From positions 1-38,287 of the IMG/VR virus record IMGVR_UViG_3300025779_000009: 38,287 nucleotides of DNA. One strand, 5' to 3'. Numbering within the stretch: the stretch's first letter is position 1; each line of letters starts with the position of its first letter. Of this stretch, positions 19,980 to 38,287 are shown in pieces. This DNA comes from a virus (Duplodnaviria; Caudoviricetes). The translations under genes and the position numbers were made by a program. A model generated the notes under the pieces. That model saw nothing but the letters and a program-made list of their open reading frames with translations, ran no database searches and had not been told where the DNA came from.

Positions 19980-20762
19980 CTACCACCACCTGAGCTGCTC
20001 GTTGCCCTTCTCCCTGAGGTCTCGGAGGAGGGCCATGAGCTTCACTGGCTCCATATTGGCCGGGCCTTGATTCATGCAGCCTGACGGATAGTGGCCACCG
20101 TGCCAGATCTCATTAGCCAGCGGCAGGTGCTCGTCGTAAATGTGTGCTGATACTGCCGTGTGATAAAGGGCCCCGGCCTCGGCCTCCACTGAATATTCTC
20201 GCAGAAGACCTGCCACGAGGTGCCCCACCATGCTGAAGTTGAAGACATCGTAGGGGAACCCCAGCCAGAAATCGTTGGACCTCATGAAGGCGTGGACATC
20301 CAGGACCCCACCACGCAGCTGGAACCACAAGGCCACCGTGCAAGGGATATCCTTGCTCGGCTGCGGGTTGGGGGTCCAGATGGTGAGCCCCGCCTGGCGG
20401 CTCATCGGATCCTTGACGAGGGTCTCTACCACGTAGTCGAGCTGGGCGGCAATGCGTGGCCCGTAGGCCCCGGCGAAGCTCTCACCGTCGTCGCTGAATT
20501 TTAGTAGTTGACTGTTGTAGGGCACAACGCCTTCCACCGAGTCATCCCCCGACAGGATCCAGTAGGCCTCAGCGGCCATGAACCGATAGTTGAGCTTCCG
20601 CTCCTGAATGGTCAGGACTGGACGGTGCATGTCCACGATCGACGTCAGGTGGGGCAACTCCGTGGTGCCCATACCCCGCGGGGCCACCCGTTGGCCGCGG
20701 TAGAGAAGCATGCCCAGGGCCCGAAGCCAAGCATCATTGGCCGATTGTGCAGTGAGATTCAC
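19980..20762 (-). CDS. Thymidylate synthase-family enzyme, predicted dCMP (hydroxy)methyltransferase
   Basis: AEAYWILSG, YGPR, catalytic DIPCT, MRSNDFWLGFPYD and HIY motifs. Asp replaces the dUMP-selecting Asn177 of E. coli ThyA. Confidence 0.82.
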   Translation of the reverse strand: MNLTAQSANDAWLRALGMLLYRGQRVAPRGMGTTELPHLTSIVDMHRPVLTIQERKLNYRFMAAEAYWILSGDDSVEGVVPYNSQLLKFSDDGESFAGAYGPRIAAQLDYVVETLVKDPMSRQAGLTIWTPNPQPSKDIPCTVALWFQLRGGVLDVHAFMRSNDFWLGFPYDVFNFSMVGHLVAGLLREYSVEAEAGALYHTAVSAHIYDEHLPLANEIWHGGHYPSGCMNQGPANMEPVKLMALLRDLREKGNEQLRWW

Positions 20763-21673
20763 AGGAGCTCCTTGATGACTTCAGTGAGGCGGTAGGGCTC
20801 ATTGGCGTGGAAGCGTTTCCAGAATTGAGGATGCTCGACCATGACATCGTCGAGACCCAACTGCTGGAGGGTCTGGTGGGCCTTCTGCCCCAGCGCAATG
20901 ACCCGCTGATGCGGCTGGAAGGTAGAATGCTTATTGAGTTGGTCGGCGTTGACCCACATCAGCTCCTGCTCGCTGATGTCGGCCTCCAAAAGCTGCTGCG
21001 TAACCCACTGGCTGCATCCGCCGTTGCTGAAGCTAGCGAAAGGCCACTGATAGTAGGCATCATTTGGTTTGTGCTGGGCGAATGATTCACCCACCAACAC
21101 GACCTTGGCCTCGAGGTTACCAGCGGACCTCACCAGGGCGGGGTGAAGTGGGGTCCTGAGCTGTGGCAGAAGGGTGGAGTGCTCCAATCGGACGTCCTGG
21201 TAGGTGTAGTTGTGGAGATAGACCGGCAGGTCCGTTAGCCCGTGCGCCGCGTAGCGTCGGTAGACAGCTCGTAGTTGGGCCTCGTCAGTGAGCATCTCAG
21301 CCGCCCGCCGCTTGTTGAAGTTAGCCACAGCCACCTCTTCACCAGGCAGACACATCACAACCACGGCCCCGCAGCGCATGGCGAGACGGTCTAGCATCCG
21401 GGCCGTGGGTCTCCCGAACCTGAGACTGCCCCCACGGAAGACCTCACCGTACGGTTGCTCAGACAGCCAGCAGCGGTCAAGAACAACGTCCTGGTAACCC
21501 AGGAGCGCGGGTAGCAGGGCCTCCACGTAGCAGCGGGCAAGACCTGGCCCGATGGCTGGCAAATTGCTGAAGTGGATGTAGGCCGCCCTTGTGTGGTGGG
21601 CAAACTCTCGAGCAGCAGTTGTTTTACCCCCGCCGTCCGGGCCCTCAAAGATTGTGACTGTCCTAGACGTCAT
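20759..21673 (-). CDS. dNMP (thymidylate-kinase-like) kinase fused to a C-terminal uracil-DNA glycosylase-superfamily-like domain
   Basis: P-loop IFEGPDGGGKTT and VVLDR..LSE..YG. The C-terminus has GNLEAKVVLVGE, VIALGQKA and EHP motifs. Start ATG at 21673 with GAGGGG RBS. Confidence 0.72.
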   Translation of the reverse strand: MTSRTVTIFEGPDGGGKTTAAREFAHHTRAAYIHFSNLPAIGPGLARCYVEALLPALLGYQDVVLDRCWLSEQPYGEVFRGGSLRFGRPTARMLDRLAMRCGAVVVMCLPGEEVAVANFNKRRAAEMLTDEAQLRAVYRRYAAHGLTDLPVYLHNYTYQDVRLEHSTLLPQLRTPLHPALVRSAGNLEAKVVLVGESFAQHKPNDAYYQWPFASFSNGGCSQWVTQQLLEADISEQELMWVNADQLNKHSTFQPHQRVIALGQKAHQTLQQLGLDDVMVEHPQFWKRFHANEPYRLTEVIKELL

Positions 21674-22169
21674 CACGGCACAGCCCCTCAAGTACTTGGT
21701 CGTGGGCATTGGTAAACAGGAGGCGGTTATACTGGTGCTCATACAAAATCATGAGGGTCATAGGTGGCACCCACCCCATGGGCTTGATCAGGTCGACCCT
21801 GTGTCCGCGCTTGCCGACCCCGGGGATCTTGTCCATGTTGGCTCCATGGACGTCGGACCAGAGCTCCTCCCAGGGCAGGCCCAGCATGATGGCGGTCCCC
21901 TTGGCAAAGTAGACGAGGTCAATCAGGGCATCGGCCTGGGCAGCGAGGTCTTGGAGCTCAACCCCCTCCCTGAACTCATCGAGCTCTTCCTGCATGCACT
22001 CCAACCGCTCGAATAGCTTCCGACGGGTGAGGTGGGCGGGAAAGGGTGGTCGAGTGAGGTGACCAAATCGCGCCAAGAACTGCTCGACGTCGAGGGTCTC
22101 CTGGTCGACGTAGGTGGGGCCACCTGGGTCCCTGAAGAACACGCTCTTAAACCACGACTTGAGACTCAT
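21663..22169 (-). CDS. All-alpha (MazG/PRA-PH-like) nucleoside triphosphate pyrophosphohydrolase
   Basis: EELDEF...ADALIDLVYF...VHGANMDK...KPMGW signature. ATGA overlap with the upstream gene. Confidence 0.8.
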   Translation of the reverse strand: MSLKSWFKSVFFRDPGGPTYVDQETLDVEQFLARFGHLTRPPFPAHLTRRKLFERLECMQEELDEFREGVELQDLAAQADALIDLVYFAKGTAIMLGLPWEELWSDVHGANMDKIPGVGKRGHRVDLIKPMGWVPPMTLMILYEHQYNRLLFTNAHDQVLEGLCRDDV

Positions 22170-22909
22170 TTGACCCTCCGGCAAACCCACAGGTTGTTGC
22201 GGGCCTGGTCAGGGAATAGTGGGCCGAAGATGTTCGAGATGGCGTCACTGTCGAAATACTCCTCGAGCATTGCCGCCACCTGGCCCACCGCCTTGTCCGG
22301 GTGCTTCTTGATGTGCTTGATGTCCATGAAGGTGCCGAACCGCCGCTCCACCACGAAGCCAGCCTTTTCAGCCGCCTTCTGAAGCTCGGGGACGGTGTAC
22401 TCGTGGATGTGGTTGGCAGCGTGGCGCTTCCCGTCGTAGCAGGGGGTCGACATCAGCATGACACCGCCGACCTTCAGGCTGTCGAAACAGGCCTTGAGCA
22501 GCTTGGCTCCGAGCTCCACACGCATGTGCTCGATGACCTCGTAGTGGACCACGACGTCGAACCTTTCAGGCTTGGCCTTGAGCAGCTCCTTGTAGCGCTC
22601 CACGAAGTTGAACTCGCCATGGAAGGTGAGTCGCTGGGACGCCGAGGGCTTCAGCTTGTTCAGGTCCACACCCACGTAGGTGTTGACGTGGGCCGCAGCC
22701 CCACCAGTCAGGATCTTGCTGAGGGGCCGGTCCTCACCGCAACCAATCTCGAGCACGTCGTGGTTGGGCTTGACGAAGCGACGGGCGAAGGACCAGCGAA
22801 AAAAGTGGGCGGAGTAGTCCCTGGCAAGGGTTCTACCATGTCCAGCCTCCCTGAGCTGTGTCTGATCATAGTCACGGTCATCACGGTGTTTCTCTTTACG
22901 CTGGACCAT
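22166..22909 (-). CDS. Class I SAM-dependent methyltransferase (UbiG-like, not a canonical DNA MTase)
   Basis: Motif I VLEIGCGE, YVGVDLN, FDVVVHYEVIEH and LKVGGVMLMSTP. No DPPY/NPPY or C5 motif-IV PC after motif I. AGGAGG RBS. Confidence 0.85.
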   Translation of the reverse strand: MVQRKEKHRDDRDYDQTQLREAGHGRTLARDYSAHFFRWSFARRFVKPNHDVLEIGCGEDRPLSKILTGGAAAHVNTYVGVDLNKLKPSASQRLTFHGEFNFVERYKELLKAKPERFDVVVHYEVIEHMRVELGAKLLKACFDSLKVGGVMLMSTPCYDGKRHAANHIHEYTVPELQKAAEKAGFVVERRFGTFMDIKHIKKHPDKAVGQVAAMLEEYFDSDAISNIFGPLFPDQARNNLWVCRRVK

Positions 22910-23371
22910 CTAGTCCTCCTGGGTGGGGTGTGTTCTGAGCGGTGTGAACAGAGCCCGGTCGATGGGCCAGTCACATTTGATTCGTTGTTGGAACTGATTG
23001 CTAGGCACTACGCACCTGGGATCTGCACCCCATTCTGCAGAGCACTTAGTCTCATCTTGAAAAGTCAGAAGAAGATTGTTGGATTTGTTCCAGCAGTTTA
23101 CCTGTCGCGAAACAAACCGACAATTCGTCGGGCTGTAACCCTTGGTGTTGTCGATGCGATCGATGTCAAGGCCATACTTATAGCCATTGATAATTGCCCA
23201 CTTCACAAAGTTAACACTACCGGAGCGCCCTGACCACTCTGAGCAGAGTGTGATGCCCTTCGCCCCGTAGTCCTTCCAAGATCTGTGCTTGGGCGAATTA
23301 CAACGGCCGTGGATCCCAGCCCAAACTGCTTGGAGCTTGAAGATGAGGTCCACGACCGCGTCGGAGGTCAT
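22910..23371 (-). CDS. HNH-type homing endonuclease-like protein
   Basis: RCNSP....KDYGAKGITLCSEW...LDIDRIDNTKGYSPTNCRF...NCWN. Visibly more AT-rich than its neighbours. Confidence 0.75.
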   Translation of the reverse strand: MTSDAVVDLIFKLQAVWAGIHGRCNSPKHRSWKDYGAKGITLCSEWSGRSGSVNFVKWAIINGYKYGLDIDRIDNTKGYSPTNCRFVSRQVNCWNKSNNLLLTFQDETKCSAEWGADPRCVVPSNQFQQRIKCDWPIDRALFTPLRTHPTQED

Positions 23372-23372
23372 G

Positions 23373-24110
23373 TTACTTTGCCTCCGGGGGATTCATCCCC
23401 TTCTTCTGAAGATCCTTCCTGTACCAGCGCACGTAGCCACGCTTCGACTCGTCGAGGCCGAACTTGGCCTGGACCTTCTCGAAGATCTTGTCGTCGGAGA
23501 GCTTCCCCTCCATGATGAGGTCACAGAACATCTTGCTGGCCGTGAGCTTCTTCTCGCCCGACGGCTTGTGGGTCTCGGTCACCTTGGTGGGGGTAGCTGT
23601 CGGCTTCCCACCCTTGAAGGGGGCCTTCTCAGCCTTGGGCTCAGGCTGCTTCTTGGCGGTGGCCTTAGCCACGACCTTCTTCGTGGTGGCCGCATCTTCG
23701 TTGGCCTTCTTGCGGTTCGTCGCCATGGCGACCTCCTGTGAAGTGATCTTGGTGAAGTTGCCTAGGAAGGTCATCACCTCGGTGGTAGCCCCTATCTCAA
23801 CTGCGTACCGGGCATAAACCGCGGCTCCCCGAGAGAGGCTGTGGTTGGGGACGGTCCTGAAGCGTTCAGTGAACTGAGCGGTGCTGGTGGAGCAAATACA
23901 GAGCCCAGACTCAGTCTCAAGTGGGATGAACTTGGTGATGCTTTCATCCTGGCTCACCACAAGACACGTGCGCTGCTCGTGGTCGAAGCAGAAGCGGGTC
24001 TGATGCTTGACGTCGTCGGCCAGGATCTCCTTGGGCTTCCCAGGTGGGACCCCCGCAGGCAGCTTCTTGGCCACCACGGTGGTGGGTTTCTTTGAGGCAG
24101 GTTTCGCCAT
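23373..24110 (-). CDS. Hypothetical protein with Lys-rich linker and C-terminal putative DNA-binding domain
   Basis: GAGGAG RBS downstream of a consensus promoter. The C-terminal domain is paralogous to 35354-35779. Confidence 0.7.
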   Translation of the reverse strand: MAKPASKKPTTVVAKKLPAGVPPGKPKEILADDVKHQTRFCFDHEQRTCLVVSQDESITKFIPLETESGLCICSTSTAQFTERFRTVPNHSLSRGAAVYARYAVEIGATTEVMTFLGNFTKITSQEVAMATNRKKANEDAATTKKVVAKATAKKQPEPKAEKAPFKGGKPTATPTKVTETHKPSGEKKLTASKMFCDLIMEGKLSDDKIFEKVQAKFGLDESKRGYVRWYRKDLQKKGMNPPEAK

Positions 24111-24132: not shown

Positions 24133-24170
24133 ATTATAGGCCCACAGCTGACTCTGTAAACTGTTATTTT
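24133..24170 (-). promoter_or_regulatory. Sigma70-like phage promoter, copy 1 (upstream of the modification module)
   Basis: Minus strand AAAATAACAG-TTTACA-N16-TATAAT. Confidence 0.75.
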
Positions 24171-37659: not shown

Positions 37660-38139
37660 ATGGCCAAGCAACTTCCACCCAAGCCCGAGGTCCTCACCGC
37701 TGAGGTCGTTGAGGTCAACCGTCGGGACCCAGTGACCAACCTCACCGGCCCTGAGGAGGTCTACTGCCTGCAGGTCGTCCGCACCGGCAACTGCTCAGCA
37801 GCTTTCCGCCTGGCCTTTCCCGACCACGTGTGCCTCGAGACCCGCGAGAAGGAAAAGGCAAAGCTCGGCGCCTACCTGCAGCGCCTGAACAAGGACCCCC
37901 GGATCAAGGCCCGGCTGGAGCAGCTCCGTGAGGTCGTGAGGACCTACACCGGCATCAGCCTCTTCGACCACGTCGCCACCCTGCAGGAGCTGCGTGAGGG
38001 TGCCGTCGGGGCCCAGCAGTTCGGGCCCGCCGTGGCGGCTGAGGTGAGCCGGGGGAAGGTGTCCGGGCTGTACGTCGAGAAGGTCGAGCACTCCGGGGTG
38101 GTCAACATCGTCGCCTCCACCTTCGATGAGGGGCTGTGA
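37660..38139 (+). CDS. terS: Terminase small subunit
   Basis: TAAGGAG RBS, N-terminal GNCSAAFRLAF helix motif, PRIKARLEQLR and GKVSGLYVEKVEHSG. Precedes terL on the circle. Confidence 0.8.
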   Translation: MAKQLPPKPEVLTAEVVEVNRRDPVTNLTGPEEVYCLQVVRTGNCSAAFRLAFPDHVCLETREKEKAKLGAYLQRLNKDPRIKARLEQLREVVRTYTGISLFDHVATLQELREGAVGAQQFGPAVAAEVSRGKVSGLYVEKVEHSGVVNIVASTFDEGL

Positions 38140-38287
38140 TGGGGGCCCAACGGTCCGCACCGCCCAAGCAGCCAGGCCCGATCCTCAAGGTCGTCAGGGC
38201 CAAGAAGCCCAAGAAGGAGCCGTCGCTCGAGGAGCGGATCGCTGAGCTCAAGCGCCAGGCCCTGCTGAACGCACCACCGCCTCCCCC
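38139..38287 (+). CDS. ORF running off the end; probable Pro/Lys-rich N-terminus of TerL
   Basis: TGATG coupling with terS and no stop before the window end. Joins the terL frame if the terminal C runs overlap by 2 or 5 nt. Confidence 0.55.
   Translation, partial: MGAQRSAPPKQPGPILKVVRAKKPKKEPSLEERIAELKRQALLNAPPPP

Follow-up and report, generated by a model that had tools for sequence, protein, structure and literature searches.

Four overlapping genes in a small freshwater phage genome place a thymidylate-synthase homolog bearing the signature of dCMP hydroxymethylases beside a class I SAM methyltransferase. This locus raises the question of what base the phage makes from cytosine, and what the methyltransferase then modifies. 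The window, by which we mean the whole 38,287-nucleotide stretch that was analyzed, appears to be a complete, circular genome.

Organization of the four-gene module

An ORF check of the window identified four minus-strand ORFs that encode the methyltransferase, a MazG-like protein, a kinase/UDG fusion, and the synthase. The initial annotation described these genes as overlapping and translationally coupled, and the overlaps are real: the MazG-like ORF overlaps the methyltransferase ORF via ATGA, the start of the kinase/UDG ORF overlaps the end of the MazG-like ORF by 11 nt, and the synthase ORF overlaps the kinase/UDG ORF via GTGA. They belong to a coupled unit of six genes headed by a promoter at 24160-24133:

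24133..24160, minus strand: sigma70-type promoter, TTTACA-16-TATAAT, 11/12 match, directly after the SNF2 helicase stop
23373..24110, minus strand: conserved 245-aa basic protein, no Pfam or PHROG match
22910..23371, minus strand: HNH endonuclease, phrog_3377 E 4e-37
22166..22909, minus strand: class I SAM methyltransferase, 247 aa, pI 9.2, Methyltransf_23 E 5e-13
21663..22169, minus strand: MazG-like (PRA-PH/DR2231-type) dNTP pyrophosphohydrolase, ATG start, PF01503 E 2e-11
20759..21673, minus strand: kinase/UDG fusion, ATG start, phrog_761 thymidylate kinase E 1e-13
19980..20762, minus strand: thymidylate-synthase homolog with dCMP-hydroxymethylase signature, GTG start, Thymidylat_synt E 1e-20

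The four genes had been assigned a promoter of their own; the site is conserved, but two coupled genes (those for the 245-aa protein and the HNH endonuclease) intervene. The promoter is supported because the site recurs across related loci: 17 of 28 related loci have a match of at least 10/12 in the stretch from the helicase gene to the methyltransferase gene, versus 58 of 560 shuffles, whereas a single scan match is at chance level (1 site found at a 9/12 threshold versus 1.6 expected by chance). The C-terminal 65 amino acids of the 245-aa protein are conserved upstream of the module, with 33 of 58 related loci containing them; this part also occurs in some relatives that lack the methyltransferase, and atlas matches to the protein are unnamed viral clusters only. 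The HNH endonuclease is missing from the equivalent position in the non-self loci examined and is likely a homing-type insertion outside the pathway.

The same four genes occur in the same order in Stenotrophomonas phage AXL3 and Pseudoxanthomonas phage PW916 (gp31-gp28), whose methyltransferases are 72% and synthases 45-46% identical to those of the window. Both phages additionally have a dCMP deaminase and matches to ThyX, neither of which is present in the window. A first profile match to deaminase in the window arose spuriously from an HNH-deaminase fusion among the training sequences, and neither the cleaned profile nor Pfam detected one; profile searches of the genome likewise found no ThyX, GT1, GT2, or DHFR. 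Among relatives, dCMP deaminase neighbors the module in 53 of 58 loci, DHFR is absent from 48 of 49, and ThyX occurs in 8 of 49, including AXL3, so that the synthase is not needed there for dTMP. The window genome represents a minimal form of the system without deaminase or ThyX.

The synthase has the signature of a dCMP hydroxymethylase

In ThyA numbering, the synthase contains Asp143, Thr147, Asp169, and Asp177, which is the pattern of the T4 and MilA hydroxymethylases. The corresponding set in its own numbering is E65, D138, C141, T142, S162, D164, D172, H207, and Y209; C141 and E65 align with C146 and E58, the catalytic Cys and Glu of ThyA, and D138 is the Asp lying three positions upstream of this catalytic Cys (ThyA 143). 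The motifs PCT and MRSNDFWLGFPYD reported by the initial annotation are present, as is the Asp claimed at the position of ThyA Asn177: the final D of the second motif, D172, aligns with ThyA N177 and T4 D179. The available portions of earlier studies give Asp at ThyA 177 as the rule for cytosine specificity (PMC8670742; PMC13326640), Asp or Glu at ThyA 143, which precedes the catalytic Cys by three residues, as the mark of a hydroxymethylase (PMC6400193; PMC13326640), and Asn at ThyA 169 as the rule for 5hodCMP synthases (PMC13326640), and report that D145N in the T4 enzyme eliminates hydroxymethylation (PMC6400193). All 120 synthase homologs among the matches listed share D143/T147/D169/D177 (118 scored by pattern and 2 with insertions read by eye). 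Three other assignments do not fit. A 5hodCMP synthase of the RB69 gp48 type should have Asn at ThyA 169, where the synthase keeps Asp (D164); ThyA and the dUMP hydroxymethylases need Asn177 rather than Asp, and all NCBIfam ThyA models scored far below cut-off; and a dCMP methylase of the Xp12 type would combine a non-acidic residue at ThyA 143 with a DHFR partner, neither of which is found here.

The best PDB match of the synthase is the CMP hydroxymethylase MilA of the mildiomycin pathway (E 1e-21), with which it has Asp at 143 and 177 in common. MilA prefers CMP through Ala176/Lys133 (PMC5175136), whereas the synthase retains Ser167 and Arg126, the deoxy pattern. T4 gp42 shares D143/C146/T147/S167/D169/D177 with the synthase, but identity is only 27% over 128 aa. 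The Ser/Thr found two residues before a conserved Tyr in the T4 enzyme (S94-x-Y96) is Gly in the synthase and in all 120 homologs listed, and we therefore call the synthase T4-like in function rather than a gp42 ortholog; the SP8 and M6 dUMP hydroxymethylases likewise do not have Ser/Thr at this position. A phylogenetic check was proposed earlier; in a quick tree, with T4, RB69, Xp12, and ThyA on long branches, Xp12 joins ThyA and the nearest characterized enzymes are dUMP hydroxymethylases. Judged by its residues, the synthase very probably makes 5hm-dCMP from dCMP and methylene-THF.

The pyrophosphatase and the kinase/UDG fusion

The MazG-like protein matches PF01503 above cut-off. DR2231, which we take to be a dUTPase, is among its closest solved relatives (E 2e-6), and the Xp12 protein adjoining the Xp12 synthase is 34% identical to it over 119 aa. 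The earlier label of dCTPase holds for the family, a MazG-like pyrophosphohydrolase, while dCTP as the substrate is suggested by context; the enzyme may act as a dCTPase and/or dUTPase.

A structure model of the kinase/UDG protein (AF2 pLDDT 91.7) bore out both folds of the proposed fusion. In this predicted structure, amino acids 1-175 adopt a thymidylate-kinase fold (Z 13.5 to 5x7j) and amino acids 175-304 a family-4 UDG fold (Z 10.2, rmsd 2.8, 123 aligned to 1l9g). Family-4 uracil-DNA glycosylases bind an Fe-S cluster through four cysteines; the UDG-like domain has a single Cys and not this four-cysteine set. Pfam UDG did not match the domain of the window protein and matched 6 of 27 aligned homologs, with E up to 0.1. 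Across these 27 rows, G195, F212, N242, and H281-P282 are retained in 24-26, and Glu196 in only 15. Motifs A (GE) and B (HP) are present as VLVGE and EHP, which resemble LLVGE/LNHP in the UDG domain of phiLo (PMC13697223). Because many relatives lack the UDG-like domain or have a degenerate copy, it looks accessory. The earlier suggestion that the two extra activities may set this pathway apart from textbook ones is supported for the methyltransferase and less so for the UDG domain.

The methyltransferase and its apparent exchange with glycosyltransferases

Invariant residues of the methyltransferase are R30-D31-Y32, H35, R38-W39, E124, E127, H128, S154-T-P, H167, and E170. Its best PDB profile matches are the O-methyltransferases Hen1 and UbiG, which share the class I fold and show weak similarity (E 4e-7 and 2e-9, respectively); the methyltransferase lacks their RNA-repair or quinone context. 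The E-x-x-E-H and S-T-P segments align with bacterial Hen1: E124/E127/H128 are aligned to EVIEH of 3jwi and correspond to Hen1 E796/E799/H800, and the alignment stops at profile position 166. H167 is invariant, and the fourth ligand in Hen1 is H860. The residues of the Hen1 motif have a metal role. A search with the methyltransferase fold recovered a generic class I fold and no match that stood out (the highest was 4htf, Z 18.9, rmsd 5.4, 208 aligned; Hen1, Z 15.8), and N- and C-methyltransferases scored alike. The ExxEH motif is common among small-molecule methyltransferases rather than specific to Hen1 (PMC1397878). DNA base methyltransferases (N4/N6/C5) are marked by (D/N/S)PP(Y/F), as defined in the same paper, or by an invariant PC motif; neither is among the invariant columns, and C157 is often Val. 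Homologs are basic (median pI 9.2), and conservation in 31 close loci is 70% for the methyltransferase versus 50% for the synthase and 54% for PolA.

The methyltransferase matches 5 of 50,697 phage records, and the same 5 records lead the synthase list. Of 27 methyltransferase loci, which include two identical to the window, 26 have a D143/T147/D177 synthase and the remaining one stops at a contig end. (L096 resembled a methyltransferase locus lacking a synthase, but its gene is unreadable in its record and it was counted neither way.) Among loci or genomes with distant homologs and a synthase, Asp177 is found in 17 of 17 and Asp143 in 16 of 17. One distant genome (L116/L129; 81% complete) pairs a methyltransferase homolog with an Xp12-like Asn143 synthase, which counts against O-methylation of 5hmC.

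That the genome has no glycosyltransferase, as first noted, was confirmed for the families searched; the BGT model found no match in the window or in any control genome but did match three related records. The methyltransferase is present in 38 of 49 related genomes, and none of these 38 matches BGT, AGT, HtrL/YibB, GT1, or GT2. Nine of the 11 relatives without it do match glycosyltransferase or glycosyltransferase-like families (3 T4 beta-glucosyltransferase, 5 HtrL/YibB, and the alpha-glucosyltransferases of phage G), although these nine cases represent only three lineages. In Bacillus phage G (gp313-gp319), a synthase with the same signature is accompanied by a deaminase and a kinase-UDG fusion (gp315) that is barely alignable to that of the window, and alpha-glucosyltransferase replaces the methyltransferase. 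This exchange points to a hydroxyl as the target. In some distant homologs (P0283), the methyltransferase is joined to a phage glycosyltransferase; across the wider family the exclusion thus has exceptions, and in those cases the target could be a sugar.

Fusions provide a second indication. A C5 cytosine DNA-methylase domain is fused to 24 of 43 long distant homologs scanned, with PPC and ESV motifs in 24 of 24, and one such fusion (L110) adjoins an Asp143/Asp177 synthase. These fusions point to DNA as the substrate; in this subset, base flipping or base activation may be the role of the fused domain. The methyltransferase is a candidate 5hmC O-methyltransferase.

Alternative explanations

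A rather unlikely alternative is that DNA contains 5hmC while the methyltransferase targets another position (e.g., N4, or 5hmU) or a free nucleotide. Its fold fits N- and C-methyltransferases equally, its gene is coupled to those of nucleotide-pool enzymes, a homolog is fused to a MazG domain (P0281), and there is the Asn143 synthase in one genome; against this stand the missing (D/N/S)PP(Y/F) motif, the glycosyltransferase exchange, which indicates a hydroxyl, and the C5-methylase fusion, which indicates DNA.

It is unlikely that 5hmC remains plain and the methyltransferase, acting on protein, RNA, or a small molecule in counter-defense or regulation, merely travels with the module. Such a role would suit its small-molecule-type fold, and a conserved host target could account for its very high conservation in phages unrelated to one another. 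Phage HTVC200P carries the synthase with neither the methyltransferase nor the glycosyltransferase families searched. The near-strict linkage to Asp177 synthases and the fusions to DNA-modifying domains argue instead for a role in DNA modification.

The initial annotation left open whether cytosine is replaced by 5mC or 5hmC. We consider it improbable that the synthase acts as a dCMP methylase, giving DNA with 5mC as in Xp12. Xp12 shares the Asp177 synthase and a PRA-PH neighbor with the window and has a DNA glycosylase (HhH-GPD) nearby; moreover, Yan et al. obtained 5mdC with 5 of the 7 deaminase-linked synthases that they tested, according to the portion of that report available (bioRxiv 2024.12.05.627091). 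However, the Xp12 synthase has Asn143/Pro147 rather than Asp143/Thr147, DHFR and deaminase are present in Xp12, and no Xp12 protein matches the methyltransferase of the window. In addition, same-signature synthases adjoin T4-type glucosyltransferases, enzymes that require a hydroxyl, and the quick tree, subject to its long branches, groups Xp12 with ThyA. Cytosine replacement by way of a dCMP-specific synthase is supported, and Asp143, set against Asn143 and the DHFR neighbor in Xp12, favors 5hmC over 5mC.

The AXL3 paper interprets the module genes as dTMP synthesis (PMC7504290), as does the PW916 annotation. In the same paper, 2 of 37 restriction enzymes cut AXL3 DNA, both at A/T-only sites, and 35 were resisted, a result that does not discriminate between 5hmC, 5mC, or a derivative. 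FolE and QueC had no match in AXL3. Restriction-site avoidance was uninformative as a genomic signature (CTAG, GTAC, and CCGG are under-represented; A/T-only palindromes are not). That the module makes dTMP or 5hm-dUMP and leaves cytosine unmodified is highly improbable: the published annotations, the frequent deaminase neighbor, and the proximity of dUMP hydroxymethylases in the quick tree fit this view, but the synthase has Asp rather than Asn at 177 and Thr rather than Asn/His at 147, the window has no deaminase as a source of dUMP, and AXL3 DNA was cut at A/T-only, not G/C, sites. Even on a conservative reading, AXL3 and PW916 are probably misannotated as regards dTMP synthesis.

Proposed pathway

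We tentatively propose, with slightly less than even confidence, that the phage swaps cytosine for 5hmC, which the methyltransferase then O-methylates to 5-methoxymethylcytosine. The MazG-like enzyme would cleave dCTP (and dUTP), leaving the monophosphate and depleting normal dCTP, and the synthase would supply 5hm-dCMP. The kinase domain would convert this to the diphosphate and a host kinase to the triphosphate, for insertion by the phage PolA. Capping of the free hydroxyl, most likely on replicated DNA, would fall to the methyltransferase in place of the T4 glucosyltransferases, and the UDG-like domain may, as an accessory, excise U or 5hmU arising from deamination. Since the window encodes no deaminase, ThyX, or second synthase, the host would have to provide dTTP. 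The modification would probably help the phage evade restriction enzymes and 5hmC-reading nucleases.

This scheme shares its pre-replicative logic with the T4 5hmC pathway (gp56 dCTPase, gp42, gp1 kinase, and alpha/beta-glucosyltransferases). It differs in that the pyrophosphatase is of the PRA-PH/DR2231 type, the kinase carries a fused UDG domain, the SAM methyltransferase is extra, and glucosyltransferase, deaminase, and dTMP synthase are missing; the phage itself has a 38-kb genome, a P22-like virion, and PolA. Neither 5-methoxymethylcytosine nor methoxymethyl cytosine in phage was found in the literature searched, most subscription journals lying outside the search; the available portions of PMC7824862 and bioRxiv 2023.12.21.572611 contain no description of the four-gene module, and one study notes O-methyltransferases in the vicinity of 5mYOX genes but reports no tests of them.

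It is possible, if somewhat doubtful, that a widespread phage family has 5-methoxymethylcytosine in place of cytosine through a dedicated, DNA-acting 5hmC O-methyltransferase. A 5hmC-specific O-methyltransferase could label or protect 5hmC in sequencing, like T4 beta-glucosyltransferase. If the proposal is true, natural DNA would gain a new base, 5-methoxymethylcytosine, and 5hmC a further cap beside glycosylation and carbamoylation, and the restriction resistance of AXL3 would be explained. Only four genes would then suffice for an undescribed base in hundreds of small phages from the environment and the gut.

Organization of the module and its genome

The window comprises the genome of a P22-like podovirus. 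Its plus strand encodes terminase, portal, coat and ejection proteins and a GH108 lysin, while primase, PolA, a PD-(D/E)XK nuclease and an SNF2 helicase are encoded on the minus strand. All 24 runs listed as containing the stretch are freshwater metagenomes. The record is entered as linear and 97% complete, but it probably represents a complete circular genome of 38,282 bases. The ends fuse in frame within the terminase gene, with an overlap of 2 or 5 bases, and a public contig carrying the module has 38,312 bases (38,282 + 30), a length that would fit a circular assembly built with 31-base words. Because the ends join in frame and this contig fits a circle, we take gene absences in the window as real, with some caution. 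The gene for the large terminase subunit is divided over the window ends (38139-38287 and 1-1374), inside a proline-rich stretch.

Re-reading the ORFs reproduced the four genes and the overlaps described in the initial annotation: a methyltransferase, a MazG-like pyrophosphatase, a kinase-UDG fusion and a thymidylate synthase homologue. These are the last four genes of a six-gene coupled unit that begins with a conserved 245-aa gene followed by an HNH endonuclease. The promoter previously assigned to the four genes is present, but these two genes intervene before the module.

24160-24133, minus strand: promoter at the start of the six-gene coupled unit
22910-23371: HNH endonuclease gene, an insertion within the operon

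In 17 of 28 related loci, the stretch between the helicase and methyltransferase genes contains a promoter of this kind, as against 58 of 560 shuffles. In one related locus (L034, 7798-8880), an HNH domain related to that of the window is fused to a dCMP deaminase.

Predicted specificity of the synthase

The best solved relative of the synthase is the CMP hydroxymethylase MilA (E 1e-21); ThyAs score 5e-14 or weaker. We aligned the synthase with the recorded sequences of six phage and bacterial enzymes, numbered as in E. coli ThyA.

Residues at ThyA positions 143/147/169/177
Window synthase: D/T/D/D
T4 gp42: D/T/D/D, same as window
Xp12 (Xanthomonas phage making 5mC): N/P/D/D
RB69 gp48: E/T/N/D
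SP8 and M6 enzymes: D/N/D/N
E. coli ThyA: L/H/D/N

The Asp noted earlier at the position of ThyA Asn177 is indeed present. According to the respective papers, Asp177 selects dCMP (PMC8670742), an acidic residue at 143 leads to a non-methyl product and Asn169 marks 5hoC synthases (both PMC13326640), and D145N abolishes T4 activity (PMC6400193). By a rule stated in PMC5175136, Ser167 and Arg126 of the window synthase fit a deoxy substrate. The signature is common to all 120 homologues listed, of 1,230 found. The equivalent of T4 Ser94 is Gly, which counts against filing the enzyme as strictly T4-type.

By established thymidylate synthase chemistry, a methylase would need DHFR for folate recycling. 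Whole-record searches found no DHFR in the window or in 48 of 49 relatives; Xp12 and jumbo phage G both have the enzyme. ThyX, which had no match in the window, occurs in 8 of 49 whole records. Yan et al. report that five of seven Asp177 synthases produced 5mdC (bioRxiv 2024.12.05.627091).

The module in related genomes and cultured phages

The synthase retrieved 58 non-self loci, in which BLASTP detected the MazG-like gene in 54, the methyltransferase in 44, the kinase in 43 and a UDG domain in 27. A deaminase is found in 53 of the 58; the window has none, nor does any part of four of the five records whose loci lack one. Some loci carry a histone-deacetylase-family gene after the deaminase (L031, 8297-9172; L035, 8323-9225). 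Two cultured phages, AXL3 (Stenotrophomonas) and PW916 (Pseudoxanthomonas), share the gene order of the window, and neither has a match to FolE or QueC, which would hint at deazaguanine. The AXL3 paper reports that only 2 of 37 enzymes cut the phage DNA, both at A/T-only sites, and assigns the module genes to thymidylate synthesis (PMC7504290), as does the PW916 paper.

Probable association of the methyltransferase with modified cytosine

The methyltransferase is modelled as a class I Rossmann fold (pLDDT 89.1), and no structural relative stood out in a fold search. Profile matches include UbiG and Hen1, with E124/E127/H128 aligned on EVIEH of Hen1; this motif is frequent in small-molecule enzymes, according to PMC1397878. 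The methyltransferase is a basic protein whose conservation exceeds that of both the synthase and PolA. Its nearest atlas clusters are mostly viral, and 185,579 prokaryotic genomes yielded ten good matches, on MAG contigs of 4-54 kb; from these searches it looks phage-specific. The module occurs there on phage-sized contigs binned into unrelated MAGs (L095-L104; Nitrospira, Flavobacterium, Saccharibacteria and others), which are probably mis-binned phages.

Three lines of comparative evidence tie the methyltransferase to modified cytosine: linkage, exchange with decorators, and fusions. A D143/D177 synthase accompanies it in 5/5 GenBank phage matches and 26/27 viral loci. Among 19 loci of distant members (including two duplicate pairs and one repeat), 14 have such a synthase within 6 kb, three have a synthase elsewhere (two D143/D177, one N143/D177) and two are short fragments without one.

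Removal of 8 near-duplicates from the 58 loci left 50, for which 49 whole records were searched. The methyltransferase is present in 38, none of which has a match to BGT, AGT, GT1, GT2 or HtrL/YibB, the last of which we take to be glycosyltransferase-like. The other 11 comprise three with BGT directly after the synthase, five with HtrL/YibB and an HMUDK helical domain, phage G with AGT, one truncated at that position, and HTVC200P, which has none of the searched decorator families. The decorator-bearing records amount to three lineages, and a quick tree places the YibB group among genomes that carry the methyltransferase.

L037, 323-1240 and 9171-9920: HMUDK helical-domain protein and HtrL/YibB protein, in relatives without methyltransferase; possibly a different 5hmC decoration
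L006, 1293-7029 (Bacillus phage G): same hydroxymethylase signature, kinase-UDG fusion, deaminase and two alpha-glucosyltransferase matches, suggesting glucosyl-5hmC
L005, 6502-7780 (Pelagibacter phage HTVC200P, T7-like, marine): kinase and D143/D177 synthase only, with no decorator, deaminase or MazG match

The methyltransferase profile retrieved 326 clusters at E < 1e-30, and 38 of the best 150 are at least 400 aa long. In the 43 long homologues scanned, a C5 cytosine DNA-methylase domain occurs 24 times and a PRA-PH domain once; the extra domain of P0283, a distant homologue, matches phage glycosyltransferases. The same C5-methylase-like gene, with intact-looking motifs, occurs in modules predicted to make 5hmC; the window has no such gene.

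L014, 4197-5543; L022, 4518-5627; L118, 6759-8294; L121, 2462-3673: C5-methylase-like gene inside the module
L110, 5980-7899: fused C5-methylase-like domain

The kinase-UDG fusion and the pyrophosphatase

The predicted structure of the kinase-UDG protein (pLDDT 91.7) bears out the fusion proposed in the initial annotation: residues 1-175 adopt a thymidylate-kinase fold (Z 13.5) and residues 175-304 a family-4 UDG fold (Z 10.2, 9.7 and 9.6 against three UDGs). Phe212, Asn242 and His281-Pro282 are well conserved among aligned homologues, Glu196 less so, and the Fe-S cysteines of family-4 UDGs are absent from the window domain. We regard the fusion as accessory because in several relatives an unrelated ~130-aa gene substitutes for it or the UDG part has decayed. 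That gene, presumably Nmad1/DUF1599-like, carries a KxxDYN motif in a group of 12 loci and replaces the kinase-UDG gene in the loci read.

L012, 6588-6983; L031, 6582-7001: KxxDYN gene of ~130 aa, no Pfam match

In Xp12 (L063, 7974-8456), an unannotated HhH-GPD glycosylase adjoins the 5mC synthase. It is possibly a T:G repair enzyme, and may parallel the window UDG domain in repairing a deaminated base. The window pyrophosphatase resembles DR2231, and we infer that its substrate is dCTP.

Proposed pathway

Pre-replicative 5hmC as such is already known. A literature search that covered few subscription journals returned no description of the role of the methyltransferase or of a 5-methoxymethylcytosine base. 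The main doubts about O-methylation are the generic methyltransferase fold, the Asn143 synthase case and the glycosyltransferase fusions. In our model, 5hmC would be made before replication, which we regard as highly probable for the window phage. The methyltransferase would add a methyl group to the 5hmC oxygen; overall, we consider it nearly an even call, leaning slightly against, that the phage would thereby produce 5-methoxymethylcytosine.
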